This document shows positions 7,026 through 39,841 of a stretch of DNA of 64,000 nt, piece after piece. The stretch lies in NCBI RefSeq assembly GCF_050320075.1, contig NZ_CP190018.1; one strand, given 5' to 3'. The notes beneath the pieces are model-generated. The model saw nothing but the letters and a program-made list of their open reading frames with translations. It was not told where the DNA came from and did not search any database. This DNA is from Escherichia coli (lineage in GTDB: Bacteria; Pseudomonadota; Gammaproteobacteria; Enterobacterales; Enterobacteriaceae). The translations under genes and the position numbers were made by a program. The stretch's first letter is position 1. Every line of letters starts with the position of its first letter.

Positions 7026-7169
7026 TTCTCCCGATTTCCTCAATTGCAATGAACCCGATGACCTGCGCATCGGGTTTTTTATTTCAGTTTCGCGGCGGGT
7101 GGCATCAGCAATAAAGTTTCCCCCTTCCTTGCCGATAACGAGATCAACTTGTTTTCAGGAAGGTGCCTT

Positions 7170-13669: not shown

Positions 13670-14818
13670 GTGTCTGACGAGAGCGACGACAAAACAGAAG
13701 CCCCCACACCTCACCGACTAGAAAAAGCGCGGGAAGAGGGGCAAATCCCGCGTTCCCGTGAACTGACTTCACTGCTGATTTTGTTAGTGGGCGTTAGTGT
13801 TATCTGGTTTGGCGGTGTGTCGCTGGCCCGTCGATTGTCGGGCATGCTCTCCGCTGGGCTGCATTTTGATCACAGTATTATCAATGACCCGAATCTGATC
13901 CTCGGGCAAATTATTCTGCTGATCAGAGAAGCCATGCTGGCGCTGCTGCCGCTGATTAGCGGCGTGGTGCTGGTGGCGCTCATTTCTCCGGTCATGCTGG
14001 GAGGGCTGGTATTTAGCGGAAAATCCTTGCAGCCGAAGTTTTCCAAACTCAACCCGCTACCGGGCATTAAACGGATATTCTCGGCTCAGACTGGCGCGGA
14101 GTTGCTTAAGGCAATTTTGAAAACCATCCTGGTTGGCAGCGTGACGGGATTTTTTCTCTGGCATCACTGGCCGCAGATGATGCGCTTAATGGCCGAGTCT
14201 CCGATTACCGCCATGGGTAATGCGATGGATCTGGTAGGGCTATGCGCGCTGCTGGTGGTACTTGGTGTTATTCCGATGGTGGGATTTGACGTCTTTTTCC
14301 AAATCTTCAGCCACCTGAAAAAGCTGCGAATGTCGCGGCAGGATATTCGTGATGAGTTCAAACAAAGCGAAGGCGACCCCCAAGTTAAAGGGCGGATCCG
14401 TCAGATGCAGCGAGCGGCCGCACGGCGTCGGATGATGGCCGATGTGCCGAAAGCGGACGTTATCGTCAATAACCCAACTCACTACTCAGTGGCTTTGCAG
14501 TACGACGAAAACAAAATGAGTGCGCCAAAAGTCGTTGCCAAGGGCGCGGGGCTGGTGGCATTACGCATTCGTGAAATTGGCGCTGAAAATAACGTCCCTA
14601 CGCTTGAAGCGCCGCCGCTGGCGCGAGCGCTGTATCGACATGCGGAGATCGGTCAACAAATCCCGGGTCAACTGTACGCCGCGGTGGCGGAAGTGCTGGC
14701 CTGGGTCTGGCAACTGAAACGCTGGCGTCTGGCTGGTGGACAGCGCCCTGTACAACCTACTCATCTTCCGGTGCCGGAAGCCCTGGATTTTATTAACGAG
14801 AAACCGACCCATGAGTAA
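13670..14818 (+). CDS. flhB: Flagellar export apparatus protein FlhB (GTG start)
   Basis: 382 aa MSDESDDKTEAPTPHRLEKAREEGQIP...; NPTH autocleavage motif present. Confidence 0.95.
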   Translation: MSDESDDKTEAPTPHRLEKAREEGQIPRSRELTSLLILLVGVSVIWFGGVSLARRLSGMLSAGLHFDHSIINDPNLILGQIILLIREAMLALLPLISGVVLVALISPVMLGGLVFSGKSLQPKFSKLNPLPGIKRIFSAQTGAELLKAILKTILVGSVTGFFLWHHWPQMMRLMAESPITAMGNAMDLVGLCALLVVLGVIPMVGFDVFFQIFSHLKKLRMSRQDIRDEFKQSEGDPQVKGRIRQMQRAAARRRMMADVPKADVIVNNPTHYSVALQYDENKMSAPKVVAKGAGLVALRIREIGAENNVPTLEAPPLARALYRHAEIGQQIPGQLYAAVAEVLAWVWQLKRWRLAGGQRPVQPTHLPVPEALDFINEKPTHE

Positions 14819-16889
14819 TCTGGCCGCGATGCTGCGCCTGCCTGCAAACCTGAAATCGACACAATGGCAGATCCTTGCCGGACCGATTTTGATCCTGTTG
14901 ATTTTGTCGATGATGGTGCTGCCACTGCCCGCATTCATACTCGACCTGTTGTTTACCTTCAATATTGCCTTGTCGATCATGGTGTTGCTGGTGGCGATGT
15001 TTACCCAGCGCACGCTTGAGTTTGCTGCGTTTCCGACCATTCTATTGTTTACTACGTTGTTGCGTCTGGCACTTAACGTAGCTTCAACCCGCATCATTTT
15101 GATGGAAGGGCATACCGGCGCGGCGGCGGCTGGGAAGGTGGTCGAAGCGTTCGGTCACTTCCTCGTTGGTGGCAATTTCGCTATCGGTATCGTGGTGTTC
15201 GTCATTCTCGTGATCATCAACTTTATGGTCATTACCAAAGGTGCCGGGCGTATCGCAGAAGTGGGGGCGCGCTTTGTTCTCGATGGTATGCCGGGTAAGC
15301 AGATGGCGATTGACGCCGACCTTAACGCCGGATTGATTGGTGAAGATGAGGCGAAAAAACGCCGCTCCGAAGTGACTCAGGAAGCCGATTTTTACGGCTC
15401 AATGGACGGGGCAAGTAAGTTTGTTCGCGGCGATGCCATCGCCGGGATCCTCATCATGGTCATTAACGTTGTCGGCGGGTTGCTGGTCGGCGTGCTGCAA
15501 CATGGCATGAGCATGGGACACGCCGCGGAAAGTTATACGCTATTGACCATTGGCGACGGTCTGGTGGCACAAATCCCGGCGCTGGTGATTTCTACCGCCG
15601 CGGGGGTCATCGTTACGCGTGTCAGCACCGATCAGGATGTTGGCGAGCAGATGGTGAATCAGCTTTTCAGTAACCCGAGCGTTATGTTGTTAAGCGCCGC
15701 CGTGCTCGGTTTACTCGGCCTGGTGCCCGGAATGCCGAACCTGGTATTTTTGCTGTTCACTGCCGGATTGCTTGGGCTGGCCTGGTGGATCCGCGGACGT
15801 GAACAAAAAGCGCCTGCCGAACCAAAACCGGTAAAAATGGCAGAGAATAATACCGTTGTCGAAGCGACGTGGAACGATGTACAACTGGAAGATTCCTTGG
15901 GAATGGAAGTGGGTTATCGACTGATCCCGATGGTTGATTTCCAACAAGATGGCGAGTTGCTGGGCCGTATTCGTAGTATTCGTAAGAAATTTGCTCAGGA
16001 GATGGGGTTTCTGCCGCCGGTGGTGCACATTCGCGACAATATGGATCTGCAACCTGCACGTTATCGCATTTTGATGAAAGGCGTAGAGATTGGCACTGGC
16101 GATGCCTATCCGGGGCGCTGGCTGGCAATTAACCCAGGTACCGCTGCCGGGACGTTACCTGGTGAGGCGACCGTCGATCCGGCATTTGGCCTGAATGCTA
16201 TCTGGATTGAAAGTGCGCTTAAAGAACAGGCGCAGATTCAGGGGTACACCGTGGTTGAGGCCAGCACGGTGGTGGCAACGCATCTTAACCACCTCATTAG
16301 CCAGCATGCCGCAGAGCTGTTTGGTCGTCAGGAGGCGCAACAGCTGTTGGATCGCGTCGCCCAGGAGATGCCAAAGCTGACGGAAGATCTCGTTCCTGGC
16401 GTCGTCACGCTCACCACACTGCATAAAGTGCTGCAAAATCTGCTCGATGAAAAAGTGCCGATTCGCGATATGCGCACTATTCTCGAAACGCTGGCGGAAC
16501 ATGCGCCCATCCAAAGCGATCCACATGAATTAACCGCCGTCGTGCGCGTGGCGTTGGGACGGGCGATTACCCAGCAGTGGTTTCCTGGCAAAGATGAAGT
16601 TCATGTTATTGGCCTCGATACACCGCTGGAACGTTTGTTGCTACAGGCGTTGCAGGGCGGGGGCGGACTGGAGCCAGGGCTGGCGGATCGTTTACTGGCG
16701 CAAACTCAGGAAGCTCTATCCCGTCAGGAGATGTTGGGTGCGCCGCCAGTTTTATTGGTGAACCACGCGCTGCGACCATTATTGTCTCGCTTCCTGCGCC
16801 GCAGCTTGCCGCAGTTAGTGGTGCTGTCGAATCTGGAACTATCTGATAACCGACATATCCGCATGACGGCGACAATTGGCGGTAAATGA
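14811..16889 (+). CDS. flhA: Flagellar export apparatus protein FlhA
   Basis: 692 aa from MSNLAAMLRLPANLK...; overlaps flhB stop; ORF-track start at 14736 is an upstream extension. Confidence 0.95.
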   Translation: MSNLAAMLRLPANLKSTQWQILAGPILILLILSMMVLPLPAFILDLLFTFNIALSIMVLLVAMFTQRTLEFAAFPTILLFTTLLRLALNVASTRIILMEGHTGAAAAGKVVEAFGHFLVGGNFAIGIVVFVILVIINFMVITKGAGRIAEVGARFVLDGMPGKQMAIDADLNAGLIGEDEAKKRRSEVTQEADFYGSMDGASKFVRGDAIAGILIMVINVVGGLLVGVLQHGMSMGHAAESYTLLTIGDGLVAQIPALVISTAAGVIVTRVSTDQDVGEQMVNQLFSNPSVMLLSAAVLGLLGLVPGMPNLVFLLFTAGLLGLAWWIRGREQKAPAEPKPVKMAENNTVVEATWNDVQLEDSLGMEVGYRLIPMVDFQQDGELLGRIRSIRKKFAQEMGFLPPVVHIRDNMDLQPARYRILMKGVEIGTGDAYPGRWLAINPGTAAGTLPGEATVDPAFGLNAIWIESALKEQAQIQGYTVVEASTVVATHLNHLISQHAAELFGRQEAQQLLDRVAQEMPKLTEDLVPGVVTLTTLHKVLQNLLDEKVPIRDMRTILETLAEHAPIQSDPHELTAVVRVALGRAITQQWFPGKDEVHVIGLDTPLERLLLQALQGGGGLEPGLADRLLAQTQEALSRQEMLGAPPVLLVNHALRPLLSRFLRRSLPQLVVLSNLELSDNRHIRMTATIGGK

Positions 16890-17281
16890 TGAGAACCTTA
16901 TTAGCAATATTATTGTTTCCGCTGCTGGTGCAAGCCGCCGGGGAGGGGATGTGGCAGGCGAGTAGTGTGGGCGTTACGCTGAATCACCGTGGTGAGTCGA
17001 TGTCGTCAGCGCCTCTTTCTACTCGACAACCTGCTGCAGGATTGATGACGCTGGTGGCGTGGCGTTATCAGCTTATCGGCCCGACACCTGCAGGACTGCG
17101 GGTTCGCTTGTGTTCACAATCTCGTTGTGTCGAATTAGAAGGGCAGAGTGGAACCACCGTGGCCTTTTCCGGTATACCGGCGATAGAACCGTTGCGATTT
17201 ATCTGGGAAGTGCCTGGCGGTGGGCGGTTAATTCCGCCGCTAAAGGTACAACGGAATGAAGTGATTGTGAATTATCGTTAA
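16886..17281 (+). CDS. flhE: Flagellar protein FlhE
   Basis: 130-aa signal-peptide protein MMRTLLAILLFPLLVQA...; overlaps flhA stop. Confidence 0.9.
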   Translation: MMRTLLAILLFPLLVQAAGEGMWQASSVGVTLNHRGESMSSAPLSTRQPAAGLMTLVAWRYQLIGPTPAGLRVRLCSQSRCVELEGQSGTTVAFSGIPAIEPLRFIWEVPGGGRLIPPLKVQRNEVIVNYR

Positions 17282-17285
17282 TGAT

Positions 17286-17320
17286 AAAAAAGCCGATGTC
17301 TGCCATGACATCGGCTTTTG
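17286..17320. terminator. Bidirectional rho-independent terminator shared by convergent flhE and argS
   Basis: A-tract, stem AGCCGATGTC/GACATCGGCT, T-tract. Confidence 0.8.
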
Positions 17321-17333
17321 CCGTATAACGCGA

Positions 17334-19067
17334 TTACATACGCTCTACTGTCTCAATACCCAGCGTATCCAGACCCAGTTTCAGCGTCTTCGCCGTCAGT
17401 TGTGCCAGTTTCAGACGGCTGTTACGCACTTCTTCGTTTTCTGCGCTGAGGATCGGGCAGTGCTCGTAGAAGCCAGAGAACAGACCAGCCAGATCGTACA
17501 GGTAAGCACACATCACATGCGGCGTGCCTTCACGGGCAACCACGGTGAGGGTTTCTTCAAACTGCAGCAGGCGAGCTGCCAGTTGCGCTTCACGATCTTC
17601 ACGGATGATAACCGGAGCTGCAGCCAGTTGCTCTTCGTCAATTTCTGCTTTACGGAACACGGACAATACACGCGTGTATGCATACTGCATGTATGGCGCG
17701 GTATTACCCTCAAACGCCAGCATGTTGTCCCAGTCGAAGATGTAGTCCGTGGTGCGGTTTTTGGAGAGATCCGCATATTTCACCGCACCAATACCAACTG
17801 CGTTAGCCAGTTTTTCCAGCTCGTCGGCTGGCATATCCGGGTTCTTTTCTGCCACCAGACGACGTGCACGCTCCAGGGCTTCATCCAGCAGATCCGCCAG
17901 TTTCACTGTACCACCCGCGCGGGTTTTGAACGGTTTGCCGTCTTTGCCCAGCATCATGCCGAACATGTGGTGTTCCAGCGGTACGGATTCCGGTACATAG
18001 CCTGCTTTACGGACGATAGCCCACGCCTGCATCAGGTGTTGATGCTGACGGGAGTCGATGTAATACAGCACGCGATCGGCATGCAGTGTTTCATAACGAT
18101 ATTTCGCACAGGCGATATCAGTGGTGGTGTAGAGATAGCCACCATCTTTCTTCTGAATGATCACGCCCATCGGTTCGCCTTCCTTGTTTTTGAACTCATC
18201 AAGGAATACGACGGTCGCGCCTTCACTTTCTACTGCCAGACCTTTGGCTTTCAGGTCCGCCACGATACCCGGCAGCATTGGGTTGTAGAGACTTTCACCC
18301 ATGACGTCATCGCGGGTCAACGTCACGTTCAGACGATCGTAGGTGATCTGGTTCTGCGTCATGGTGATGTCGACCAGTTTGCGCCACATCTCGCGGAAAT
18401 ATTCGTCACCGCTTTGCAGTTTGACTACGTAGTTACGTGCACGCTCGGCAAACTCTTCATCTTCGTCGTAATGCTTTTTCGCATCGCGGTAGAAACCTTC
18501 AAGGTCAGCCAGCTCCATTTCACCGGCGTTTTCTTGCTGCTGCTTTTCCAACCACGCAATCAGCATACCGAACTGAGTACCCCAGTCGCCGACGTGGTTC
18601 GCGCGAATCACTTTGTGACCGAGGAACTCCAGAGTACGCACTGCCGCGTCACCAATAATGGTAGAGCGCAGGTGACCGACGTGCATCTCTTTCGCCACGT
18701 TCGGAGCGGAGTAGTCAACCACAATGGTCTGTTTTTCTGGCGTAGCAACACCGAGACGATCGGACGCCAGCGCCTGCTGAACATGATCAGCCAGGAAGGC
18801 TGGATCAAGAAAAATGTTGATAAAGCCTGGACCGGCGATCTCAACTTTGCTGGCGATACCGTTAAGATCCAGATGAGTCAGCACCTGCTCTGCTAATTGT
18901 CGCGGTGCCATACCCAGTTTTTTAGCAACTGCCATCATGCCGTTAGCCTGATAGTCGCCGAACTGAACTTTTGCTGACTGACGAACCTGCGGTTCGCAAT
19001 CCGCAGGCGCGCCTGCCGCAATCATGGCCTGACGGACTTTTTCTGAGAGAAGAGCCTGAATATTCAC
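17334..19067 (-). CDS. argS: Arginine--tRNA ligase (GTG start)
   Basis: 577 aa [19 protein letters not shown]...; class I aaRS HVGH and KMSKS-like motifs. Confidence 0.97.
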
Positions 19068-19853: not shown

Positions 19854-20609
<756 letters not shown>

Positions 20610-20655
20610 TTTTTACCGTTGCATCATGTCGCCCAATATGATGCTTGCTCGTACC

Positions 20656-20688
20656 AGGCCCCTGCAATTTCAACAGGGGCCTTTTTTT
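20656..20688 (+). terminator. Rho-independent terminator after cutC
   Basis: Stem AGGCCCCTG/CAGGGGCCT followed by T7. Confidence 0.8.
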
Positions 20689-27130: not shown

Positions 27131-27189
27131 TCAAGGTCTAAATGCACTACATGGGCACCTAAACATATACATGTGATGTTGAGGTGTTA

Positions 27190-27210
27190 GAAAGGGGGCT
27201 GTTCAGCCCC
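27190..27210 (-). terminator. Rho-independent terminator for the 306-aa leftward gene
   Basis: On minus strand GGGGCTGAACAGCCCC hairpin followed by CTTTCT, immediately after the stop at 27219. Confidence 0.7.
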
Positions 27211-27218
27211 TGATAGAC

Positions 27219-28139
27219 TTAGTAATTATCCCTGACAACTTCATCATATCTTTCAATGAAGGTTAGTTGTTTATTACTTCCATTATAACTATCAACCCAT
27301 TTGTCTACAGCTTCATCGAATAGAAATAAAAAATCCGTATAATTTATATACACTACATTATCATAATATTGGGTTGGGTGACCTCTTTTACATACAGCAA
27401 TACTAAGACGTCTTTCTTTACCCTGAGTAACTTTGTGTGAATTAAGATTAGTCATGTGAAGCAATGAGTTCCTTAATTCATATAATTCGTCGGAAGTTAC
27501 TCCAAGTTTTTGTATATCTGAGTATGTATCTAACCAATTTTGAAAGACTCTTCTTTTGTTTCCAAACTCAATATAAGCTATAGTATCAATAAATGACATT
27601 AATAGCTTGAAGCTTGACAAGTAATGTTTTTTGTTAAACAGAAGCTTTATTGGTTCCATATGGTCATCATTAAGAAGTTCCTTAATGTGAAAACCATCAT
27701 CTTTCATATACTTATCAAGATAGTCTGGCAAGTCTTTTACACCTTCAATGTGATAGTTAGGTGTGTGCTTATTCCTTAATTGCTCTGACATTGATAACTG
27801 AATATCATATTGTAATTTGCCTTTAACAACGGGGGTGACTATAGCTAAAGGGTTTTCAGGTGCATTTTGAGCTTCTAATGCTAATTCAAACGGAGCAAAA
27901 GGATTACCAATCCGCAAATTTGCATTATATCTTTCAAGTGTCAATTTGTCATTTTCTAAAACAGAAGGGTGTATCCCATAAAATAAACGACAAGAAGCTA
28001 AGTCAATCTCCAAATTCCGCTTTAAAAAATCTAATTTTTGCGCATCATCGCCATCATGTTCGTGAGGTACTATTCCGGCATGTGTGATATGAACTCCATC
28101 AGGACTAAAGCAAAATATGTTGTAGATAATCTCTTTCAT
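27219..28139 (-). CDS. Hypothetical 306-aa protein, AT-rich, counter-oriented accessory gene in the element; has one R-x4-H (RNSLLH) motif
   Basis: Uninterrupted ORF with ATG start, own terminator, transcribed opposite to the rest of the element; no family recognised by eye. Confidence 0.6.
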   Translation of the reverse strand: MKEIIYNIFCFSPDGVHITHAGIVPHEHDGDDAQKLDFLKRNLEIDLASCRLFYGIHPSVLENDKLTLERYNANLRIGNPFAPFELALEAQNAPENPLAIVTPVVKGKLQYDIQLSMSEQLRNKHTPNYHIEGVKDLPDYLDKYMKDDGFHIKELLNDDHMEPIKLLFNKKHYLSSFKLLMSFIDTIAYIEFGNKRRVFQNWLDTYSDIQKLGVTSDELYELRNSLLHMTNLNSHKVTQGKERRLSIAVCKRGHPTQYYDNVVYINYTDFLFLFDEAVDKWVDSYNGSNKQLTFIERYDEVVRDNY

Positions 28140-28400
28140 ACCATTCTAACCTTCAGTGAAAATAAAGTTTTAACTATCATTAGATTATGAACAATCACAA
28201 TTGGCCTGTAAATAACAGGGCATAAACAGGTTCGTTTAGCTTGATTTTATCACTATAACTGTCTGATTTAACGGTAACTCACCAAGTATACACACAGTAA
28301 TTACACAATCCTGTTATTATGTAACTTATTGAAATATATAAATAATTTTTACATTCTTTGTTTGGGGTAAGCTGTGTAATGTTAGTCGTCCCTCTCCAGA

Positions 28401-28414
28401 CACTATATATAGTG
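28401..28414. promoter_or_regulatory. Perfect 14-bp palindrome CACTATATATAGTG in the 1.1 kb ORF-free spacer
   Basis: Read directly; embedded in a run of TATATA-containing repeats. Confidence 0.4.
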
Positions 28415-29102
28415 CTATATACAGGACTATATAACGATATATAGATGTTTGGTCACATGGTATAACTATCAAACCACTTAACGATTTCCTACGTGAAAGT
28501 TAGAAAGTGATAGTTATAGTTACCTTGTCAAATCTTCGTAGTCCCTTCTTAAAAAATCGTGAAAGGTAATCTTGTTATCTATACAGAATCTACGTAGATG
28601 CTTCTTAGTGCGCAAAACAGCTATTATGTTAAAAACGCACTGTATACGTATCAGTACTGATTTATAAGGGTTTTGTGTATTGGCTGATAAGAGGCTATAC
28701 AGCACCTTGAGAGCATGTCTTCTAAGTCATTGACATATAAGGTCACAGAAGTTTGTAGCTGTTACAGAGAAAACTGGATAGGACTTCACAGAACTATAAA
28801 ATGTTACAGCTATTGATAGGTGAAATCTTCTTGATAGATGCTTTGAAGTGTGGTGAAGGCTTTTTGAGGTGGGGCTAAACAGATATCATGAAGAAAGTCA
28901 ATAGTTGATTCGGTTTATCGAATAAACCTCATAGATATTTTAAAATTCTGCAAAGGGGGTCACATAGCTGGTGTGACGGGTACTTAGCAGCTACAGACAT
29001 CTATCAGATATTTTTGAAGATTTTTAGAAGGGGAATTTGAAGAGGGGCTACTACGATTTTATAAAAATTTTCAGATTCTGAAAAGTTACTGTACAGAATA
29101 TG

Positions 29103-29127
29103 TACAGATATCTTTAAAGTATCTGTA
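29103..29127. promoter_or_regulatory. Inverted repeat TACAGATA-N9-TATCTGTA (candidate operator) upstream of the MTase gene
   Basis: Read directly; adjacent direct repeats GTACAGA(A/T)AT and GATATCC x2. Confidence 0.4.
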
Positions 29128-29249
29128 AAAACTTTTAAGATAAAAGATAGATATCCCAGAAAGGATATCCGTTTAGAAAACCTATTAAGTATCTCTTAAA
29201 AGAGAGTAAACCTTGTCAAGAGTGATTGCAATAAAAATTTTTATTTCTT

Positions 29250-29912
29250 ATGTCAATTGAGTGTATTTTAATCGGGAAACATCATGGGGGTTCTGATTAC
29301 TGGAGAACTCCATTTTTGTTATTTAAGAACTTACACCGTGAATTTATTTTCAGTCTGGATGGTGCTGCAACTAAGCACGATACGTTATTACCCCGCTTTA
29401 CGGATGATATTCACAATCAGTCATGGGATGGTGAACGGGTATTCTGTAACCCACCATACAGCGACACTAAAACATTCCTCGTAAAAGCGTCTGAGGCAGA
29501 TTTATCGGTATTCCTGATACCGTACCGACCCCAAACCATATACTGGCTTAAGCACATCTTCACAAACCCGCTTTGCCATGAAATCCGTATTCTTCATCGT
29601 GCAGTTAAATACCTTCCACCAGCAGGGCATAACAGGCTTACTATTAGGTCGCCGTTTCCAAGTGCAGTCGTTGTTTTTAAAAAAGAACCACGCAGGCATG
29701 AAATTACGCAGATGGTTTGCTGTGCTGATACATTGCTACCGTTAACCATCATTAACAGAGGAGGCTTGAGAGGAAGGCCCACCATTTACCCACCTGAGAC
29801 GCTCGACAGCTTCATAAAACTATACAGGCAAGGCAAACCCATTAAGTGCATTGCAGATGCTCTCAGAATGCCTCTGAGCACGTCATACAGGATTGCTCAA
29901 AGGTTGAGCTAG
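29250..29912 (+). CDS. Phage-type DNA N6-adenine methyltransferase (Dam family) with C-terminal HTH-like tail
   Basis: SDYWRTPF...FSLDGAA...FCNPPY motifs typical of phage Dam MTases; C-terminal GRP...IADALRMPLSTSYRIAQRL resembles an HTH. Confidence 0.75.
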   Translation: MSIECILIGKHHGGSDYWRTPFLLFKNLHREFIFSLDGAATKHDTLLPRFTDDIHNQSWDGERVFCNPPYSDTKTFLVKASEADLSVFLIPYRPQTIYWLKHIFTNPLCHEIRILHRAVKYLPPAGHNRLTIRSPFPSAVVVFKKEPRRHEITQMVCCADTLLPLTIINRGGLRGRPTIYPPETLDSFIKLYRQGKPIKCIADALRMPLSTSYRIAQRLS

Positions 29913-30052
29913 AATTCTCATAAATATGGTCATTTACAAGACAGGTGATTTAGATATTAAGAGGTATCCCTGTGAACAATAAATGACCAATCAGTAATTA
30001 TCCTGTGAAATAATTGTTGCAATTTATAATCACACATGGTATAGTTTCATAG

Positions 30053-30197
30053 TGGACTGATAAAAAAGTTCATGTCTTGAAGTGGTAACACTTGGGGAGG
30101 TGTCAGATGATTGACGTATATTAACCTCTCATTCATGGTAATACCTCAGCGTTTTAATCATCGTACTGTTTCAGGCATGGACTTCTTTATCAGTCCA
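30053..30197. promoter_or_regulatory. 145-bp segment bracketed by a perfect 12-bp inverted repeat (TGGACTGATAAA / TTTATCAGTCCA) upstream of the initiator gene
   Basis: Read directly at 30053-30064 and 30186-30197. Confidence 0.4.
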
Positions 30198-30276
30198 TCA
30201 ATCCCCCAGATATTTTAATCACACAGGCTAATCGGTTTTATCCGGTTGGCCTTTTCACGTATGAGGTAATTTATGA

Positions 30277-31245
30277 ATGAAAAAAGAAACTAATGCTTTT
30301 ATTATGGTAGATAAACGAGTTGCACAATTCCCTAAAACATTAAAGCCAATTGACCGCTTGGTATATTTCACTATGCTGGATGGTGCTGATTATTACGAAT
30401 CTAAGTTCGGGAGATACGCACCAAGTATTGACTATTTGATGGTTATGTCTGGTGCTACACGTAATACAGTTATTGATTCACTTAAGAGACTTGAGTCACA
30501 CAGACTTATCGAAAAGACCAATGTAAAGGGTCAGCAAAGTATTTTTAAAGTATTCACGTTGGATGAGCGTCCAGAGGTCTTATCAGAACCTACCCTTGAT
30601 GAGCGTCGTAGAGCTAAATTATCAGGTCAACCAGAATCTGACAGTAACCCAACCAAAAATTGGTTACCTACCCAACCAGAATTTGGTTACCTACCTAACC
30701 AGAATTTGGTTACATGTAATACTGAATATAAAGACAAAAATATAAATACTGAAGAAGAAAGACTAAAAGGGAACTTTGAAGAAGAATCTCTTAAGAAGGG
30801 AGCTTCGCTCTGTGATTCACATGAATGTGATATTAAAGAAGATGACTTTCTTTCTTTGGATGAATTAAATGATTTTCTCTCTATGAATGAATCTGGCCTT
30901 GATAGTGAAGCTACTAAAGAGGCTGTTAAAAAGGAAGATAAAATCTCTGATGTGAATATCGATAGTGACCATAAAAACACACAGTGCCCCGCCACTGATG
31001 ATGAGATGGACCCCTTCGATGATTACCTTGATGAAGAGTCAGAGCGTGAAAAAGCCATTAAGAGGGTAGAGAAGAAAAAGAGATTCGAGCTTGCAAGACA
31101 AAAGAACAAAGTATCGGGTTTAGACCCATTCGATGACAGTGACGATGATGACTTTTCTTTCACACCAAGAAAGAAACAAACTCAGGATGACAAGAAGCAA
31201 AAAATTAAACCGAAGATGTATTTTGCTGGTGGAGGTATGCGCTAA
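30277..31245 (+). CDS. Putative replication initiator / replisome organiser (N-terminal winged-helix-like domain, acidic C-terminal tail)
   Basis: N-terminus resembles phage initiator DNA-binding domains; tandem iterons inside the ORF; highly acidic low-complexity C-terminal half. Confidence 0.55.
   Translation: MKKETNAFIMVDKRVAQFPKTLKPIDRLVYFTMLDGADYYESKFGRYAPSIDYLMVMSGATRNTVIDSLKRLESHRLIEKTNVKGQQSIFKVFTLDERPEVLSEPTLDERRRAKLSGQPESDSNPTKNWLPTQPEFGYLPNQNLVTCNTEYKDKNINTEEERLKGNFEEESLKKGASLCDSHECDIKEDDFLSLDELNDFLSMNESGLDSEATKEAVKKEDKISDVNIDSDHKNTQCPATDDEMDPFDDYLDEESEREKAIKRVEKKKRFELARQKNKVSGLDPFDDSDDDDFSFTPRKKQTQDDKKQKIKPKMYFAGGGMR
30641..30714. repeat. Tandem 23-bp direct repeats (iterons) inside the initiator ORF: TTGGTTACCTACC(C/T)AACCAGAAT
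   Basis: Two full units at 30660-30682 and 30683-30705 (1 mismatch) plus flanking partial units. Confidence 0.8.
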
Positions 31246-31541
31246 TGAAAGAATATCACGGTGAAAAGAGATACAAAGATTACCTGTTAAAGCGTTATAG
31301 CATTTCTCGTGAAGGCCACTTAATGAAGGATACTCACGGGGAAGTTTACCGGATTAGACCGAAGAAAGAAGGGAGGGATTATTTCTTTTACGATGGTGTG
31401 ACAGATTTAAAGATTGATGCTTTGAAGTTTGCGGCGCTGTATCATTATGATATCTGGGACTCAGTCCACCAGCTACGATTAAAAGACGGTGACCCCGGTA
31501 ATCTGAGGGCCACCAATATTATCAAGGGAAAGTGCCGGTAA
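31245..31541 (+). CDS. Small HNH_3/NUMOD4-like protein (98 aa), catalytic His not evident
   Basis: YSISREGHLMKDTHGEVYRIRPKKEGRDYFFYDG...LKDGDPGNLRATN resembles NUMOD4/HNH_3 layout; overlaps initiator stop. Confidence 0.45.
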   Translation: MKEYHGEKRYKDYLLKRYSISREGHLMKDTHGEVYRIRPKKEGRDYFFYDGVTDLKIDALKFAALYHYDIWDSVHQLRLKDGDPGNLRATNIIKGKCR

Positions 31542-31864
31542 GTCCACCAGCTATTTATTTATTGAAATCTCTATCTCAACACGAAGAAGTTTAAGTCGAA
31601 TTGTAAGCTTTGTCTTTTTTGTAATGACTCGATTCATAACGCAAAACACCAATAGCACAATAAATACCGCAAAGCCCAACGAGCTAAAACGATGAGATTC
31701 AATAATTGCTGTGAAAAAATCATGCATTAATTTTCCTTTTGCGAAAGGAAACAGCACCTGTATCAGCCCCTATAACCATAATATCATGTAAATGAGATGT
31801 TGACAATATGTTAAATAAATGTTATGATTGTAGTATGAGTAAGAGATTTAAGGAGATTTTTACA

Positions 31865-32155
31865 ATGACTCACACAGTTACGCGCCTTTTGCCAGAGGCA
31901 TTTGAACGACTGGCAGCAATCAAAGCCAAATATCCCGATATGAAGCACACAGCGCTTGTTGGAGAGCTTTTAAAAGAGTCGGTAACCCTGACCCCTTTCG
32001 ATAACGTTAAGGGCGTTGCAGAGGGTTCTAAGGCCATCAGAATCACAACGGACCAACTGGAACTACTCAAAGCACAGTCCGCAGTAGCAGGTTGCTCAAT
32101 GATTCAGGTGTTAAGCGCAAAGGTCCATCAATTAGCGGATAGGCTGGGGGTTTAA
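31865..32155 (+). CDS. Hypothetical small protein (96 aa)
   Basis: AAGGAG RBS 8 nt upstream of ATG at 31865; ORF-track start at 31808 is probably an extension; stop overlaps next gene (TAATG). Confidence 0.5.
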   Translation: MTHTVTRLLPEAFERLAAIKAKYPDMKHTALVGELLKESVTLTPFDNVKGVAEGSKAIRITTDQLELLKAQSAVAGCSMIQVLSAKVHQLADRLGV

Positions 32156-32580
32156 TGCTATGCACATTTGATTATCATGCGTTTTATCGCCATAGAGGCC
32201 ACCTTGTCCGTGAGAATAGCGGAACATGGAAAGATTTAACTCGTAATGCTGAACCCTTCACACACCAGCAATTAAAATCCCGCTTCTCCAGATGGAAGAA
32301 TGCACCAGCAGATACTGGTGATTTTGAGATTATCCATACCTTCGATTATGCCTCAGAAGATGACCTTCACGATGCAATTAAGCTGATTGAAGACTTCAAT
32401 ACCTCAGAAGATGTGGATGGTGACAAATATAAATCCCGTGGTAACCGCTATAACCGTGATGATATCACTCAGGCCATAAATGCTGGTCAATCTCAGCGAT
32501 ACATTACAGAAAAATATGGTATTTCACGGAGACAGTATTTCTACGTTAAATCATTGATTAATAAAGACAATTCAAAATAA
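32155..32580 (+). CDS. Hypothetical protein (141 aa) with C-terminal HTH-like segment
   Basis: Translationally coupled to upstream gene; C-terminus ...QSQRYITEKYGISRRQYFYVK resembles a Hin/resolvase-type HTH. Confidence 0.5.
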   Translation: MLCTFDYHAFYRHRGHLVRENSGTWKDLTRNAEPFTHQQLKSRFSRWKNAPADTGDFEIIHTFDYASEDDLHDAIKLIEDFNTSEDVDGDKYKSRGNRYNRDDITQAINAGQSQRYITEKYGISRRQYFYVKSLINKDNSK

Positions 32581-32741
32581 CCATCTCAGTAACGGTAGAA
32601 TGCACTTTACAGGCAGAGTTGCACCTTAATTTGATAAATTACCTTACCAGCCAGTGCAACTCCCTCTGTAACCCGCATGATTACTGGTCTCAGAATGGCT
32701 ATTTTAAGAGGTCTGAGATGTGTTTTGTAGGAGATTTAAAA

Positions 32742-33065
32742 ATGAACAACTTCCCATTACAGATTTTCGTTGATAACGACACCGCTATGATGGTGCAAAG
32801 CTTCAGTGATGCAGGTATTAGCATTGATTTTGACAGGCTGTTAAAGCTAATGGCTGATAATGAAGAAAACGTCTCTGACTTTATTCACTCGGTGGAGTTT
32901 AACGAGCCTCGAATGATGTTACCAATTACAGACAGTAATATGAAAAGATTGGTTATTGAGCAAACGAACAAATACAGTATTTCCCCAGAGCAATTTTTGA
33001 AAGGTGCTGTGACAATCCTGTACAGCGATAATATTTTGGTTACGGATTCCGTGAGGGTTCACTAA
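32742..33065 (+). CDS. Hypothetical small protein (107 aa)
   Basis: GGAG-type RBS before ATG at 32742; ORF-track start at 32619 is probably an extension. Confidence 0.45.
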   Translation: MNNFPLQIFVDNDTAMMVQSFSDAGISIDFDRLLKLMADNEENVSDFIHSVEFNEPRMMLPITDSNMKRLVIEQTNKYSISPEQFLKGAVTILYSDNILVTDSVRVH

Positions 33066-33359
33066 TGGGCTTAATAATTGCTTGGACGTTGCTTGGCTTA
33101 TTTGTTGGTTGCTGGGTAGGCAGCACAGTAAATAGAAATTGATGTTACCAATCTGTTAAAAAGCTGTTGACAAATAACCTTAAGCATGAGATGATGGTAA
33201 TAGGGGAGAGCAACTCTCTCTTATTTTTCTTTCAAAATAATCCGATGGATGGATATTCTGAATTGGAAAGGTGCAATGCTTTTCGTCATGGCCTTTCAGT
33301 TTAGTCTGAGAGGCTATCTCAAAAAGTGCTTAATCATTCATTGAACCCTTTACAGCTTT

Positions 33360-33387
33360 GCCCTAACTCATGATTAGGGCTTTCTTT
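33360..33387 (+). terminator. Rho-independent terminator-like hairpin
   Basis: Stem GCCCTAA/TTAGGGC with 7-nt loop followed by TTTCTTT. Confidence 0.55.
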
Positions 33388-33456
33388 AAGAGTTTTTAAA
33401 CAGAGCTTTTAAAGAAAGTTTTTCCTGAAACTTCGTTAACGTTAAAGCAAACCTTC

Positions 33457-33520
33457 AAAGCCCTTCACAGATGAGGATGATTCCATGAATATCCGAATCA
33501 CCTATGTTTAGGGCTTTTTT
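33457..33520 (+). ncRNA. Long-loop hairpin with U-tract (candidate small RNA 3' end or attenuator)
   Basis: Outer stem AAAGCCCT/AGGGCTTT enclosing inner GGAT/ATCC stem, followed by T6. Confidence 0.3.
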
Positions 33521-33636
33521 CAGCTTTTAAAAAGCATACTTGGCAAACGCCTTTTAAGCCTCTTCTAAGTTCGAGGATGTCAGGTGTGCTTTTTAAAAAC
33601 TGAAACATAAATTATCTTAGAAGAGGAAAGGTATTA

Positions 33637-34341
33637 ATGGCTATCCGTGATGAAAATGAAATGATTATTGAAAACAAACCAAGTGCACTTGATATTCACG
33701 AATTAAGTTTGCGTGAATCTTTTGATAGAGCTTGGCGGGAATCACACGAAGTAAATAAAGGTCCATATATTCCACCAGAACCACTCGAGATTCCAAGAGT
33801 TGAAATTGATTTTTCTATGAACGAACGGTGTGAACTTGATTTGAAGTTGAAGCTACAACGCCGATATTTCCAAGCTATTAAAGACTCTCAAGAAGCAATG
33901 AGAAGTGTTTATGAGAAAATTCAGTCCAAGCTTGAAGACGAAATTGACGAAATGGCTATTTTGATGGAGCTTCAAACCAATCCTTATGCTTATTTCTCTC
34001 GACTAGACCGTGACGGTTGGGGGTATGACCCTGTAGAGATTGGTAAAGTGATTGCAGATTTACCAGAAGGTCAAAGGGTTATTCGTACGGAAAGGGCCAT
34101 CAGAGCGCCACATCAACTGTCTCTAATTGTTGCTGATAAATCACAAGCTGAGCTTGAAGAAATTGCCAAAGAGAAACTGATGAAAGCAAGAGAAAATGAG
34201 ATTAATTTGCTGAAATCAAGACTGGCTAAGCTGATTAGTGACCATCAAGCGCTGGCTAAGGAGTACCGTCAAGAGTTGGCACAGATTATCAGCTTCAATG
34301 ATTTTCTGAGTGTTCCACGAGAATTTAGCAAGGCTGTTTGA
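33637..34341 (+). CDS. Hypothetical protein (234 aa), charged coiled-coil-rich
   Basis: ORF with ATG and GAGG-type RBS; no family recognised. Confidence 0.55.
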   Translation: MAIRDENEMIIENKPSALDIHELSLRESFDRAWRESHEVNKGPYIPPEPLEIPRVEIDFSMNERCELDLKLKLQRRYFQAIKDSQEAMRSVYEKIQSKLEDEIDEMAILMELQTNPYAYFSRLDRDGWGYDPVEIGKVIADLPEGQRVIRTERAIRAPHQLSLIVADKSQAELEEIAKEKLMKARENEINLLKSRLAKLISDHQALAKEYRQELAQIISFNDFLSVPREFSKAV

Positions 34342-34364
34342 TTATGAATTAAAAGAGGTGATTA

Positions 34365-34583
34365 ATGTATGAAGACCGTTTGGAAACTATCAAGGCAGTT
34401 TGTGAAAAACTTAAAAACCAACCACGTAAACCAAAAACGGTAAAGAGTAAGCATCAGCCTGTCACCTCAAACAGCAAAATAAAGATTCGCAAAATTCCTT
34501 CGTGGTGCATTGACCGTATTCCGGTTGGTTCAAGAATTATTCGTGAAGATGGTGATTATCATTGGGTATCAGTTGTTGGTTAG
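34365..34583 (+). CDS. Hypothetical small basic protein (72 aa)
   Basis: RBS GAGGTG before ATG; gene-dense context. Confidence 0.45.
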   Translation: MYEDRLETIKAVCEKLKNQPRKPKTVKSKHQPVTSNSKIKIRKIPSWCIDRIPVGSRIIREDGDYHWVSVVG

Positions 34584-34671
34584 TTAGTAAAAATCTACGG
34601 GAGAGATTATCGAGTGATATCGGTAGCTCTCCCTTTTTCGTATATGAACACTTAAGAGGTGAAAAATATGA

Positions 34672-36804
34672 ATGAGCAAATTCACAGTTGATAGTTTTAT
34701 CGTTGAATTAAGCTTCAATGAAAACATTATTAAGGGCTTGCAAAGAGTTGAAAAGGCAGCTTTGCAGTCAGCACAAAGAATTGAAAAGAACCTAAATAAA
34801 GGTTTCAGGATTAATACAAAGCAGCTTGATAGTAATTTAACGGCTTCTTTAGGGCAGCTTGAAAGGAAGTTTAATAAGGCCTTTGACAAGATTGAACAGA
34901 GAGCAAGAAATACTAAAGCTTTCCAGTTTACCACCAGATTTAATGACACTGTTAATCCTCCAAAACAACCGAGACAGCCACGAATTAGCGGCAACAGAGC
35001 AATCACAGCAGCTTACTCAGCGAATATGAGCAAGCTAAAAGGCTTTGACCCTATTTTGCAGAAATACATCAAATCTCAGTTTTACGGGCTATCTGCTAAA
35101 GCCGGTTCAATGGATTCTTCAAAATTCAATGAGAAGTTAGCTCAGTTAAACGCTTCAGTCAGAGAAGCAATTGCTAAAGCCAGAGGTCATACATCCACCA
35201 GCATTAATGGTGACAGAGCAGCTAATAGTCTTGATAACCTGTCTTCAGCAGCAGTTAAAACAGCAGGTGCATTTATCTCAATGCAGGCTGTATTAGCCAG
35301 TTATCAGAAGATTATGGAAATTGGTTTACAGCGTGCAAGTGCTGAACGTTCAATTGATTTCGTATTTGATAAAGATGCAGGTCAAGTAAAAGAGTTCACA
35401 AAGTCATTAGCTCAAACAACGGGTTTAGATATCGCTGAACTGCAATCACAGTTTGCTGGTTTTGGTGCTTCAGCTAAAGAGTCTATGGGCATTCAAGGTT
35501 CTGAAGAACTTTTTAAAAATATGATTGGCTATGCTCGTCTGATGGGGAGAAGTGAAGAAGAGATTAAGCGAGCACTGACAGCATTATCACAGATGGCTGG
35601 TAAGGGTCAGGTTATGGCTGAAGAGCTTAAGGGGCAATTAGCTGAAGCTGTTCCTGGTATGGTTCAGGTATTCGCTAAAGCAACCGGAAGGAATGAACAA
35701 GAGCTATTTGATGCCATGAAGAAGGGGGCTTTAAAATCTGCCGATACTCTTCAGAAGGTCACTCAGGAACTGAATAAACAAATCACCGCTAAAGGTGGCT
35801 GGAAAGCTATTTCAGAAAGTACACAGGCACAACTAGGGAACCTGAAAAACTCTTGGAATACCACGCTTGATAGTATCTTCAGAGGTTCTGAAGATGGTCT
35901 GCAAGATTTTACAAGAAGCTTAACAACGCTTTTAAACGCTCTTGGTGGAAGTGGTAAAAGTCTTGGTGAATCTCTTGGTAGTCTCATGACTTCTATGTCA
36001 CATGGTGTCGATTCATTGACTGATATCAGCTACAGGGTAAGAGCATTCTTCGATGAGGTGACATTAGCTTACCGTTCACTAAATGACACTCAGAAAAAAA
36101 TTGTTGATGGTTTATCTGATGGGTTAATTGATGGTTTGAAGATGCTTGCCGTAGCTGTTACTGCTCAAAAGGCTGCAAATGTAGCTGGAGGCTTGTTAAA
36201 CCTTGCAAATGCTGTTACTTCATTCGGTGATGCTGTTAATAAAGCTAAAGCTGGCAAGGCTGGTTCTTCAGGTGGTGCGCTAAATAAAGTTGGTAGAGTT
36301 GTTCTTTATGCTGAGTTGGTGAACTTTGCTCTTGATAATTTAAACCCTGAAGCGGCTAAGAATCCGAACTTACACCAATCAGGTATTGGAACAGAGACAA
36401 ACTTCAACCCTGAATACAAAGGCGATTCATCTAAACCAAACCAAATTAATGATGGATGGGCTAAGATTGGTAGTTCTATCGCTGACTGGTTTAATGGTGC
36501 GGCTAATAAAATTGCTAACTTCCAAGACCCGATGAATAACTTTGTTAATAACACACAATCAACTCCACCAGCTATCACAGGTGACATGGTTAATAGCAAT
36601 GCTCAACTTGCTATGGCTGTATCAGAGTTAGGAAGAAAGGTAGACGCTTTAACAGTAGAAGCTAAGAAGCCTTTATCAGTTAATATCAAAGGTGAAGCAA
36701 TTGTTAGACCGGATGAACCAGCTTTCTTTACTTTCAATCAATCAGCTAATGACCAGTTCACGCAGGATATGCTCTTAAGTTCAAGCTATCCAGAGGAAGA
36801 ATGA
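34672..36804 (+). CDS. Tape-measure-domain-like protein (710 aa)
   Basis: Central segment ...MAEELKGQLAEAVPGMVQVFAKATGRNEQELFDAMKKGALKSADTLQKV... resembles the conserved phage tape-measure domain; Ala/Gly/Ser-rich low-complexity C-terminal part. Confidence 0.55.
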   Translation: MSKFTVDSFIVELSFNENIIKGLQRVEKAALQSAQRIEKNLNKGFRINTKQLDSNLTASLGQLERKFNKAFDKIEQRARNTKAFQFTTRFNDTVNPPKQPRQPRISGNRAITAAYSANMSKLKGFDPILQKYIKSQFYGLSAKAGSMDSSKFNEKLAQLNASVREAIAKARGHTSTSINGDRAANSLDNLSSAAVKTAGAFISMQAVLASYQKIMEIGLQRASAERSIDFVFDKDAGQVKEFTKSLAQTTGLDIAELQSQFAGFGASAKESMGIQGSEELFKNMIGYARLMGRSEEEIKRALTALSQMAGKGQVMAEELKGQLAEAVPGMVQVFAKATGRNEQELFDAMKKGALKSADTLQKVTQELNKQITAKGGWKAISESTQAQLGNLKNSWNTTLDSIFRGSEDGLQDFTRSLTTLLNALGGSGKSLGESLGSLMTSMSHGVDSLTDISYRVRAFFDEVTLAYRSLNDTQKKIVDGLSDGLIDGLKMLAVAVTAQKAANVAGGLLNLANAVTSFGDAVNKAKAGKAGSSGGALNKVGRVVLYAELVNFALDNLNPEAAKNPNLHQSGIGTETNFNPEYKGDSSKPNQINDGWAKIGSSIADWFNGAANKIANFQDPMNNFVNNTQSTPPAITGDMVNSNAQLAMAVSELGRKVDALTVEAKKPLSVNIKGEAIVRPDEPAFFTFNQSANDQFTQDMLLSSSYPEEE

Positions 36805-36967
36805 TTTCTTATATATCCGTGTGCTACGTGATTTCTTCTGAACAGATATACCCACTAAAAATTATTTTTTACGTAGCTCACGCTTAACAGAGAAAATACT
36901 TATATATCAAAGGCTTGGTTAAAAATGATTAAAATACACTAAGCCTTTGAAATCAAAGGAGAATTTA

Positions 36968-37741
36968 ATGATTTACTCTAATCAGATTCGTTACAGTGGT
37001 AAAGATGGCGTTTACTTTCATCTACAAGGCCAGCCAGATAATTTCTTGTCACTATCAGCTACTGAGAACATGGAATTTGACAGCCCTATGATGGTTACCA
37101 CTCAAAATATGCAATCAGGGCAGACTGTCACAGATAATGTAATGCGTTCACCCAGAACTATTTCAATCAGTGGTGTGGTTGTAGTTGGTGAATCCGGTAG
37201 TATCCTTATCTCAAGAGATAATAAGCTGGTGGAAAACTTCATAGACACTCTTGAAAACTGGCGTGACCAGAAGCAAATTATCTCAGTTGTCTGTAAAGAT
37301 GGTATTAAGATTGACGACTCAATTATTACAAACTTTAAAGCCTCTAAAGATGTTGGTATTGCCAATGGTCTTAGAATCCAATTAACTTTTCAGGAAATTA
37401 ACTTTAAAGCTATTGTGGGTCAGACTGATATCTCGGCTGCGACCGGAAGGACTTCTACCACAAGTGATGGTGGTGCTACCAGTAAAAAGAATACAGGGAA
37501 CACTACGACAAGCTTAGGTAACGGTATGTTGATGTGTCAGGAGCTATATAATCGCTCTACGAGTGAACTTACTAATGAGCAACTTCAAGCCCGTATCAAT
37601 TGTGGTAAAAATGTCAGAGTTAAGAACGGAAAAAGCACCTTCTCAGATGCCGCTAATGAGCAAGCTTCAAAGGTGCTTAATAATGCTGGTACAGGTAGTA
37701 CTTTGAAGAAGTATTCTGTTAATCCTAACAAGCGATACTGA
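36968..37741 (+). CDS. Hypothetical protein (257 aa), possible virion/tail-associated
   Basis: AAGGAG RBS before ATG at 36968 (ORF-track start 36947 is TTG); directly follows the tape-measure-like gene. Confidence 0.45.
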
Positions 37742-37755
37742 CGATAGAATCTCAA

Positions 37756-39279
37756 CTATATGATAACCTCATCAACATCTATTAAACCCCTCTCAGTGAC
37801 TTCAGAAAGCGACTGTATAGCCTCTGTAACGTTGTCTGAGGGGTTTTCTGTTATTGGTAAGGTGATTGCTTTACCGTTGTGAAAAGTTACTTTACAGCGA
37901 CGTTTAGCAGTATTTAAAACGACCTCTTTAACAGCACTTTTGATTATCAGTTGTGCTTCAATCCTTCCCGCCTTTGTAGTCAAGTCACAATCAGACAAAC
38001 AACCCACATCAATAGATTTAAGGCGTTGTGTCTCCTTCTCGATATCCGCATCAACTTGTGATAGCTCATTCTTTAGTTGTCTTAGTTTGCTGGTAATAGC
38101 GGACAAGTCTTCAATTTCAAGTGATAGCTGTACCAGCTTTTCAATATTGCTTGAGATGTGTTCACGGTGTAGCTTCAGTGTGTCTATGGTATTCGTCATA
38201 TCGCTATCAAATCGGTCAAGACGAGATAGCAGGGCAAGCAATGTACCATCGGTTTGCTTACGTGAAAGTCCTTTAGCACTACAACGGTTTTCATTACGAA
38301 GAGGACAACGATAAATCCCGTTTCTTGTATCGCTAAAGCCTGTGATAATCAAAGCATGACCACATTCAGAACAACGGATAACACCTTTGAAAAGATTCAC
38401 AGCCATTGGCTTATCTGAAGCAGGTTTTCTACCGTAACGAGCATATGATAGTTGTTGAACTTTGTAGAATGTTGTTTCATCTATAATTGCAGGATAATAA
38501 CCAGATATCTCCTCACAGCCTTTAGGTGTGAAGTAACCAATTACAGAGCGATTCTTCAAAAGGTCTTGCACTGAGGTTTGACCAAACTTACCTGCTTTGT
38601 ACTGGTTAAGCGTCTGGTGACCTTCAGCATTAAGAGTTCTGACAATCTCCCAGATAGACTTACCCTCTAACCGTAGCTGAAAGCACCTCTTCACAGTCTC
38701 CACTTTCTCAGGTATCACAGAGAAGCTTTTACGGTCATCATTAAGCTTAAGCCATGCAGGACAACGCCTAGAAATCTTGATACCAGCTTTAGCAGCTTCT
38801 TTCTTTGCATCCCATGCAGCTTGTATACGCTCAGCCTTACGTAATGATTCCTCATGCGCCCTTTGCATTATCAAAATGCTTTTAATCAGAGCTAACGGGT
38901 CTTTAAGAGATTCCCTTGTGTAATGTTCACCATCGGACAGGGTGACTACATCTACACCAGAGCGAAGAATGTTTCTGAGTAGCTCACTTGCTTGGTCTAC
39001 GTCCTGACGTGAGAGACGGTCTAAACTCTCGATTAGTAGTGTATCACCAGCTTTAACAAGCCCTTTCTCGATAGCGGTTAAAAAGTCACCTAAGCCACCT
39101 TTCAAGTGCTTACCAGTGAACCCGCTAACGCCTAAATCACGAAAAGTAAGGGATTCATCCAGATAGTACTCAGGATGAGCCTTAAGCCAATCAGTGACCA
39201 TCTTAGCCTGTCGTCTTAATGAGTCGCCTCTGGATTGCTTCTCAGATGAAAACCGGATGTAACTGATTGCACGTTTCAT
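37756..39279 (-). CDS. Large serine recombinase (integrase)
   Basis: 507 aa; N-terminal resolvase-type catalytic domain (YIRFSSEKQ with catalytic Ser), recombinase domain, Cys-rich zinc ribbon (CSECGH...YRCPLRNENRC), C-terminal coiled coil; adjacent to attR. Confidence 0.9.
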   Translation of the reverse strand: MKRAISYIRFSSEKQSRGDSLRRQAKMVTDWLKAHPEYYLDESLTFRDLGVSGFTGKHLKGGLGDFLTAIEKGLVKAGDTLLIESLDRLSRQDVDQASELLRNILRSGVDVVTLSDGEHYTRESLKDPLALIKSILIMQRAHEESLRKAERIQAAWDAKKEAAKAGIKISRRCPAWLKLNDDRKSFSVIPEKVETVKRCFQLRLEGKSIWEIVRTLNAEGHQTLNQYKAGKFGQTSVQDLLKNRSVIGYFTPKGCEEISGYYPAIIDETTFYKVQQLSYARYGRKPASDKPMAVNLFKGVIRCSECGHALIITGFSDTRNGIYRCPLRNENRCSAKGLSRKQTDGTLLALLSRLDRFDSDMTNTIDTLKLHREHISSNIEKLVQLSLEIEDLSAITSKLRQLKNELSQVDADIEKETQRLKSIDVGCLSDCDLTTKAGRIEAQLIIKSAVKEVVLNTAKRRCKVTFHNGKAITLPITENPSDNVTEAIQSLSEVTERGLIDVDEVII

Positions 39280-39346
39280 TGTTCACCTCACCAATAGCAG
39301 TTGGGCTTGTACCAACCCCTAGATTGTATCGCTTTAGATGGTGTAT

Positions 39347-39841
39347 TTAAACGTGTCTAATAAAAATCACCCGATTAACGCCGCGCTGATGTAAACCGCG
39401 ATTAAGCGTTTGTTCCTCTTCCCCTTTGGCGAAAAACTGTGGATGGCGGACTTCCACACCATAATTAAATTCGCCGGGAAGGGAATCGAGAAAATGCCAA
39501 AGCGCAGGCAGATCCCGTGGGCCAAATGTGGCAGGCAGTTGCAGCCAGTATTGCCCAATGCGCGGCGCTAACGGTGACATGCGGGTCAAAAATTCAGTCA
39601 CTAAATCATCGCAATGCCGTAATGCTGCCTGATGCGAAATGGTCGCCGGAAACTTAAAACAGAAGCGAAAATTATCTGTGGTCTGCTCACGCCAGCGCAG
39701 GACAACCTCGGATTTCGGCAGGGCGTAAAGCGTGGTGTTGCCCTCCACACAGTTAAAGTGGCGGGCATACTCTTCAAGGCTGGTGATCCCCAACCGCACC
39801 CATTTAGGATGCGACCATTGCGGCAGACCGATGTAAATCAT
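39347..39841 (-). pseudogene. yecE: yecE 5' fragment (N-terminal ~158 native codons, reads 6 codons into the insert before a stop)
   Basis: Translation [29 protein letters not shown]... (DUF72); 158 + 114 codons reconstitute a 272-aa protein. Confidence 0.85.
39363..39369. repeat. attR core (AAAATCA) of the yecE insertion
   Basis: Identical 7-mer to 27124-27130. Confidence 0.65.

Follow-up and report, generated by a model that had tools for sequence, protein, structure and literature searches.

The window, a 64,000-nucleotide stretch of Escherichia coli DNA, contains the junction at which flhE, the last gene of flhBAE, meets argS, the gene for arginine–tRNA ligase. The two genes are convergent, their stop codons are 52 bp apart, and one inverted repeat lies in the spacer between them. 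The features are listed here with the evidence for each in parentheses.

16889–17281, + strand: flhE coding sequence, 130 aa, last gene of flhBAE (open reading frame list; Pfam FlhE PF06366, E = 3e-41).
17282–17284, + strand: second stop codon, TGA, in frame and adjoining the flhE TAA (sequence, alignments).
17282–17333, no strand: flhE–argS spacer of exactly 52 bp, the short, yecT-less allele (sequence and open reading frame list).
17284–17291, − strand: predicted U-tract of the argS terminator, TTTTTTAT on the − strand, which is an A-tract 5′ of the hairpin on the + strand (sequence, terminator scan).
17288–17319, − strand: hairpin, predicted intrinsic terminator of argS (fold, terminator scan, conserved stem), a perfect repeat with left arm AAAAGCCGATGTC at 17288–17300, loop TGCCAT at 17301–17306 and right arm GACATCGGCTTTT at 17307–17319.
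17316–17319, + strand: short T-tract, TTTT then GCC, candidate tail for the flhE direction (weak, lineage-variable).
17334–19067, − strand: argS coding sequence, arginine–tRNA ligase, 577 aa, stop codon at 17334–17336 (open reading frame list).

The first stop codon of flhE is the TAA at 17279–17281 (+). The ArgS of the window is identical to WP_001025322.1, a protein annotated in K-12 W3110 and in CFSAN061763; the latter is a public complete genome collinear with the window, and its annotated gene coordinates are identical at the junction.

The core stem of the hairpin is G+C-rich and 9 bp long (17292–17300 with 17307–17315), and four A–U pairs extend it. RNA of the − strand, the argS sense, folds at −23.0 kcal/mol (z −5.53) and RNA of the + strand, the flhE sense, at −25.0 kcal/mol (z −6.27). 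None of 200 dinucleotide shuffles folded as stably in either orientation, so the structure is far beyond chance. A consensus terminator scan made its call on the − strand only, with a stem of 13 pairs (six of them G–C), a 6-nt loop and the tail TTTTTTATCA. The stem begins 14 nt past the argS stop, and an equivalent position is found in nine Escherichia sequences. The argS-side tail, UUUUUUAU with its U6, is invariant in all nine of these aligned sequences, which include both the short allele and the long, yecT-bearing allele described below, and among the 22 non-Escherichia species for which the argS end was recovered, most likewise have a terminator-like hairpin after argS. On the argS strand, then, a G+C-rich stem-loop is followed by a U run close 3′ of the stop codon, as in intrinsic terminators. 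Judged by sequence and predicted fold, the main role of the spacer hairpin is Rho-independent termination of argS, in textbook form.

That the hairpin is no terminator at all, and instead a dispersed REP-type repeat, a small-RNA gene or a recombination site, is scarcely credible even for a perfect 13-bp palindrome in intergenic DNA, because a 58-bp junction query matches one place per genome (median 1, maximum 2) and always between flhE and argS, an Rfam scan of the whole window at gathering thresholds gave no match at the flhE–argS junction, no promoter-like site was found within 16800–17800, and the position and U-tract are canonical for an intrinsic terminator of argS.

The flhE direction presents a different picture. 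On the + strand the hairpin folds at −21 to −25 kcal/mol and its tail is TTTTGCCG, with four T only, which is under the threshold of the terminator scan and gave no + strand call. This tail varies by lineage: as RNA it reads UUUUGCC in the window, UGUU in ST131, UUUUGU in E. albertii, and CUUU in both strain MEW and a divergent genome labelled E. coli SCPM-O-B-8794 (L004). Since the argS-side tail is invariant while the flhE-side tail varies, the comparison argues that selection keeps the element as the terminator of argS.

With an A6 run 5′ of the hairpin and U4 3′ of it, one element could nevertheless end both argS and flhBAE transcripts, and polymerase collisions could supplement the weak flhE-side signal. 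Widespread bidirectional termination, assisted by collisions, has been described for convergent gene pairs in E. coli (Ju et al. 2019, in the summary given by bioRxiv 10.1101/2022.10.23.513370); according to the same preprint, many mapped bidirectional sites are unlike intrinsic terminators and depend on polymerase collisions. The window hairpin resembles the bidirectional terminators of Ju et al. in being a single stem-loop within a convergent pair, with an A-run on one side and a T-run on the other, so that each strand reads hairpin-then-U. It differs from them in its asymmetry (U6 toward argS, U4 toward flhE), and it differs from many of the mapped collision-dependent sites in being a textbook intrinsic terminator on the argS strand. 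It is plausible that the hairpin also stops flhBAE transcripts, asymmetrically and probably with less efficiency than in the argS direction. The strength of flhE-side termination may differ between lineages, and bidirectional function may be marginal, the flhE-side tail having only four U and being degraded in other short-allele lineages. Our first-pass annotation had placed a single hairpin in the 52 bp between convergent flhE and argS, which the sequence, the open reading frame list and the folding all bear out, and had called it a bidirectional terminator; the convergent genes and the hairpin on both strands stand, but a canonical, invariant U-tract exists on the argS strand only.

In K-12 MG1655 (NC_000913.3) and in W3110, 784 bp separate the argS and flhE stop codons, and the two intervals are identical. 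They contain two genes.

K-12 interval, argS strand: yecT, b1877, 162 aa, LprI family / DUF1311 (Pfam LprI PF07007, E = 1.1e-17).
K-12 interval, opposite strand to yecT and argS: yecV, b4778, 14 codons, 14 aa (annotation).

The order is argS–yecV–yecT–flhE (b1876, b4778, b1877, b1878), with the same flanking genes in the same orientation as in the window (ArgS 100% identical, FlhE 96%). YecT has a hydrophobic, signal-like N-terminal segment. Work in K-12 shows that BglJ-RcsB activates yecT and that the gene is expressed more strongly in an hns stpA mutant (PMC3950696). The 14-aa product of yecV counts as a validated small protein (cited in bioRxiv 10.1101/2021.06.08.447495); the yecV stop codon sits within the ascending arm of the K-12 argS terminator. 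That terminator hairpin lies at the same distance from the argS stop as the one in the window and shares its end, GGCTTTTTTAT, although the inner stem sequence is unlike. The other differences are the length (784 versus 52 bp), the presence of yecT and yecV, and a separate hairpin between flhE and yecT. A tblastn search of the whole window with YecT returned a best E-value of 7 and no yecT-like sequence, and 52 bp is too short for the gene. The first-pass annotation had tentatively placed yecT between argS and flhE in K-12, correctly by the annotation of MG1655 and W3110, which has yecV there too. It had further supposed that the strain of the window lacks yecT, which the tblastn search and the 52-bp spacer confirm, and had proposed comparison with the MG1655 interval, whose 784 bp show that K-12 does not share the 52-bp junction.

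Both forms are common. A 352-bp query spanning the short junction matched contiguously in 1785 of 5426 complete E. coli genomes (33%) and was split into two places in the remaining ones, while the K-12 784-bp yecT interval matched in 3642 (67%). These counts sum to 5427 for 5426 genomes, so that practically every genome has one of the two states and only one, and short-allele genomes do not carry yecT elsewhere. The 58-bp junction query was single-copy in 1782 genomes, and the genome counts exclude the short junction as an assembly collapse. The flanks of the 1785 short-junction genomes differ by up to 4.3%. By the strain names in the matches, the short form is found in O25b:H4-ST131, ST1193 and O2:H1, and the long form in K-12, O157:H7, O55:H7, O111:H8, O103:H2, O6:H16 and O78. 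Phylogroup labels (B2, A, B1 and E), where used here, are assigned informally from such strain and serotype names. The yecT-less junction is thus an ordinary accessory-gene polymorphism, common in E. coli. What had been recorded at first pass as a strain-level difference is a real difference from K-12, but the counts make it a lineage-level dimorphism of about 1:2 and not a peculiarity of one strain.

The long allele varies in its own right. Strain N25 has an IS1 inside the yecT interval, and in 88 of the 3642 yecT-positive genomes the match spans under 80% of the interval, so this allele is itself prone to IS insertion or partial deletion.

The wider distribution comes from a scan based on FlhE with one genome per species, which gave 59 loci that were searched by tblastn for ArgS, YecT and YecM; type genomes of E. 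fergusonii, E. marmotae and E. ruysiae are missing from its Escherichia sample. The short junction was present in E. albertii NBRC 107761 (L006) and in the divergent genome L004 (FlhE 93%). The long allele was present in E. whittamii (L005) and Escherichia sp. E1V33 (L003), with YecT 96–98% identical in amino acids to that of K-12. The stem GCCGATGTC/GACATCGGC is identical in the window, ST131, strain MEW, L004 and E. albertii.

The E. albertii and L004 junctions are like that of the window in their identical stem, A6 run and argS-side tail and in the 52 bp between stop codons. They are unlike it in having a 9-nt loop (CGTAACCGC or CGTAACTGC) instead of 6 nt and in the distance from the last shared flhE codon to the argS stop, which is 3 bp longer; their flanking genes are only 84–94% identical to those of the window. 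The spacer still measures 52 bp because the loop, longer by 3 nt, is offset by a sense codon in place of the first flhE stop. That codon is CAG in E. albertii, CAA in L004 and CGG in MEW; in each the TGA is used and FlhE is one residue longer.

Strain MEW (L062), an E. coli from an ivory gull, combines features of the two groups. Its flanks are 98–100% identical to the window and typical of E. coli, while its junction (at about 2504–2555 of the locus) carries the 9-nt loop and the flanking variants of L004; it is the sole such genome among the 5426. The sequence comparison indicates very local recombination or retained polymorphism at the MEW junction. Because MEW joins E. coli flanks to an L004-type junction, the junction can move or sort independently of its flanks.

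How the short and long alleles relate in sequence can be followed at both ends of the spacer. In a global alignment of the window with K-12, homology stops at the last flhE sense codon, the flhE stops themselves being different (TAA versus TGA), and it restarts 3–6 nt beyond the argS stop, so that the entire intergenic segment differs. The best local alignment of the 52 bp is to the argS-proximal hairpin in all four long alleles, a marginal match that 1–9% of mononucleotide shuffles equal in score. In both alleles the argS hairpin starts about 14–21 nt after the argS stop and ends in GGCTTTTTTAT. The short-allele stem is GCC-GAT-GTC / GAC-ATC-GGC. The long-allele stem, which is perfect in E1V33, is GCC-T-GAT-CAG / CTG-ATC-A-GGC; compared with the short one it has one extra T–A pair, and the three innermost pairs are exchanged on both sides, with pairing kept throughout. 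The versions of both alleles fold at −16 to −23 kcal/mol in both orientations. Position and pairing suggest that the short and long argS hairpins are probably homologous, positionally equivalent terminators that have deeply diverged. We read the net difference between the alleles as about 730 bp, comprising yecV, yecT and the hairpin on the yecT/flhE side, between the flhE stop and the argS terminator.

An insertion into the hairpin loop was also considered, K-12 having AAAAAGGCTCGATGTCTTG, which resembles the short-allele left arm, 43 nt past flhE. This model was rejected. The same site is GGCTCCATGTTTTG in E1V33 and GGCTTCATGTTTTG in E. whittamii, so the likeness comes from K-12-specific substitutions in the yecT terminator; the model is also countered by the local alignment, which, unbiased, chose the argS-proximal hairpin in all four long alleles.

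Outside Escherichia, neither allele was found. tblastn detected no yecT at the site in 55 species of other genera (Citrobacter, Salmonella, Enterobacter, Leclercia and others). The distance between flhE and argS is 2.1–3.4 kb in the 22 species in which argS lies inside the 3.5 kb fetched downstream of flhE. Gene content was inspected at two non-Escherichia loci. Both encode a GH88 glycoside hydrolase, together with an MFS transporter in Citrobacter sedlakii and with a penicillin-binding protein in Salmonella diarizonae. The hairpins after flhE and argS in these genera also differ from the Escherichia ones. Since the content of the site there is unrelated and about 3 kb long, both Escherichia alleles are derived relative to other genera.

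A separate feature of these loci is the motif AGAAACGCTGTTTTATAAA, which is conserved after the flhE terminator in most non-Escherichia genera (L007–L061), about 60–110 nt downstream of flhE. MFS and/or GH88 genes lie downstream of it in L009 and L010, and the whole locus is missing from Escherichia. We take the motif to resemble a KdgR-type box, and it looks like a conserved operator for a sugar-utilisation locus.

From these comparisons, the 52-bp spacer is best read as an ‘empty-site’ allele, one of two states of an old polymorphism at the flhE–argS junction in the genus Escherichia. The alternative, K-12 allele has about 730 extra bp and a positionally equivalent but differently sequenced argS terminator. 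The strain of the window therefore has neither yecT nor yecV. We hold with good confidence that the lineage of this strain kept or inherited the yecT-less form and did not recently delete the genes; its lineage most likely retained or inherited that allele.

As to which state came first, we lean towards a short ancestor, with an AT-rich yecT cassette acquired once within Escherichia and both alleles then spread by descent and homologous recombination. The yecT interval has a GC content of 39.4%, against 53% for argS and 53–56% for flhE and flhA, and the GC3 of yecT is 34% against 58% for argS. This composition suggests that the yecT interval is an old, AT-rich acquisition. AT-richness, together with expression affected by H-NS/StpA, is typical of horizontally acquired DNA. 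Short-ancestral polarity is favoured because yecT is AT-rich and H-NS/StpA-affected and because E. albertii, an early-branching Escherichia species, is short.

Block-wise identities of the flanks (1.7 kb left, 2.4 kb right) cluster by species, are mosaic within E. coli and do not cluster by allele. A linked ancient haplotype, in which the flanks would track the allele, was rejected on this basis. The same clustering by species means that an ancestral short and an ancestral long allele would both require recombination or lineage sorting.

The reverse polarity, with yecT–yecV present in the Escherichia ancestor and then one ancient deletion, divergence of the terminators and spread by recombination, is possible but doubtful. 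Both alleles do occur in several Escherichia species, both terminators share AAGCC...GGCTTTTTTAT as well as their position and may be homologous, and the flanks cluster by species, so that the junction moves or sorts independently of them. An ancestral long allele sits less well with the short allele of E. albertii, and with a yecT that is strongly AT-rich compared with its neighbours and absent at the syntenic site in the 55 other species, a pattern more typical of acquired DNA.

It is also conceivable, though we think it unlikely, that the two alleles form an ancient trans-species polymorphism, each with its own compensated terminator, kept by selection on an LprI-type periplasmic protein and not by neutral sorting or recombination. 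One conceivable basis for such selection would be that ExPEC/B2 and commensal A/B1/E lineages meet host lysozyme to different degrees.

Very little weight falls on a recent deletion of yecT–yecV from a K-12-like 784-bp interval, in this strain or its close relatives, that left 52 bp behind. The longer interval of K-12 and two thirds of E. coli would provide the substrate, and deletions from yecT into the flh region are known in laboratory K-12 derivatives (recurrent yecT–flhD deletions in a Keio strain; PMC13082787). No simple deletion, however, yields the 52 bp, the window stem being GCCGATGTC/GACATCGGC and that of K-12 GCCTGATC.../...GATCAGGC. The same short stem is found in E. albertii and in another divergent Escherichia genome, and the short form is carried by 1785 genomes with the flank differences given above. 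Because its terminator is common to E. albertii, the short E. coli allele cannot have arisen from the K-12 form by recent deletion; an old polymorphism, with the spacer as its empty-site state, remains our reading.

Several other observations were made in the window. Compared with CFSAN061763 it has a 12.2-kb insertion at 27131–39362 that interrupts yecE (DUF72). The whole insertion is present at 100% identity in two of the 5426 complete genomes, YZLc1-3 (chicken) and Ec-U3 (human), where its annotations are a recombinase, tape measure, baseplate, a DNA N-6-adenine methyltransferase, an HTH protein and hypotheticals. The insertion has the look of a small prophage-like element; a few other genomes have elements 90–97% identical to it at this site. 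Left of it (1–27130) the window is 99.04% identical to CFSAN061763, with 258 mismatches in 27 kb, and to the right (39363–62239) it is 99.97% identical, with six mismatches in 22.9 kb; this contrast suggests a recombination mosaic around the flagellar region. Among E. coli strains flhA–flhE (14811–17281) is unusually divergent, with 91–97% nucleotide identity in blocks of 200–500 bp, and argS (17334–19067) mostly 97–100%; flhE of the window is 94.1% identical in nucleotides to that of K-12. The flhA/flhE divergence is mosaic and does not track the junction allele. Two known E. coli RNAs were found by Rfam at gathering level: MicL sRNA at 20381–20688 (+), with 368 bits and overlapping the 3′ part of cutC, and C0465 RNA at 7045–7122 (−), with 100 bits, between cheW and tar.

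Much of what is described here is already known. The junction is annotated in more than 1700 public genomes, yecT and yecV are known K-12 genes, and terminators shared by convergent genes are known. In the yecT literature we found K-12-centred studies only, and no paper on the flhE–argS dimorphism. Only two points are mildly interesting, the age of the polymorphism, which more than one Escherichia species shares, and the way in which the two argS terminators have diverged with full compensation. The data suggest no new mechanism, and the junction is a convenient natural test case for asymmetric bidirectional termination. Short-allele strains would have one terminator for flhBAE and argS, where flagellar readthrough would run antisense to the essential argS. 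About a third of sequenced E. coli, ST131 and ST1193 among them, have neither yecT, a BglJ-RcsB target, nor yecV, and the gene list of K-12 is not a safe guide to other lineages of the species.
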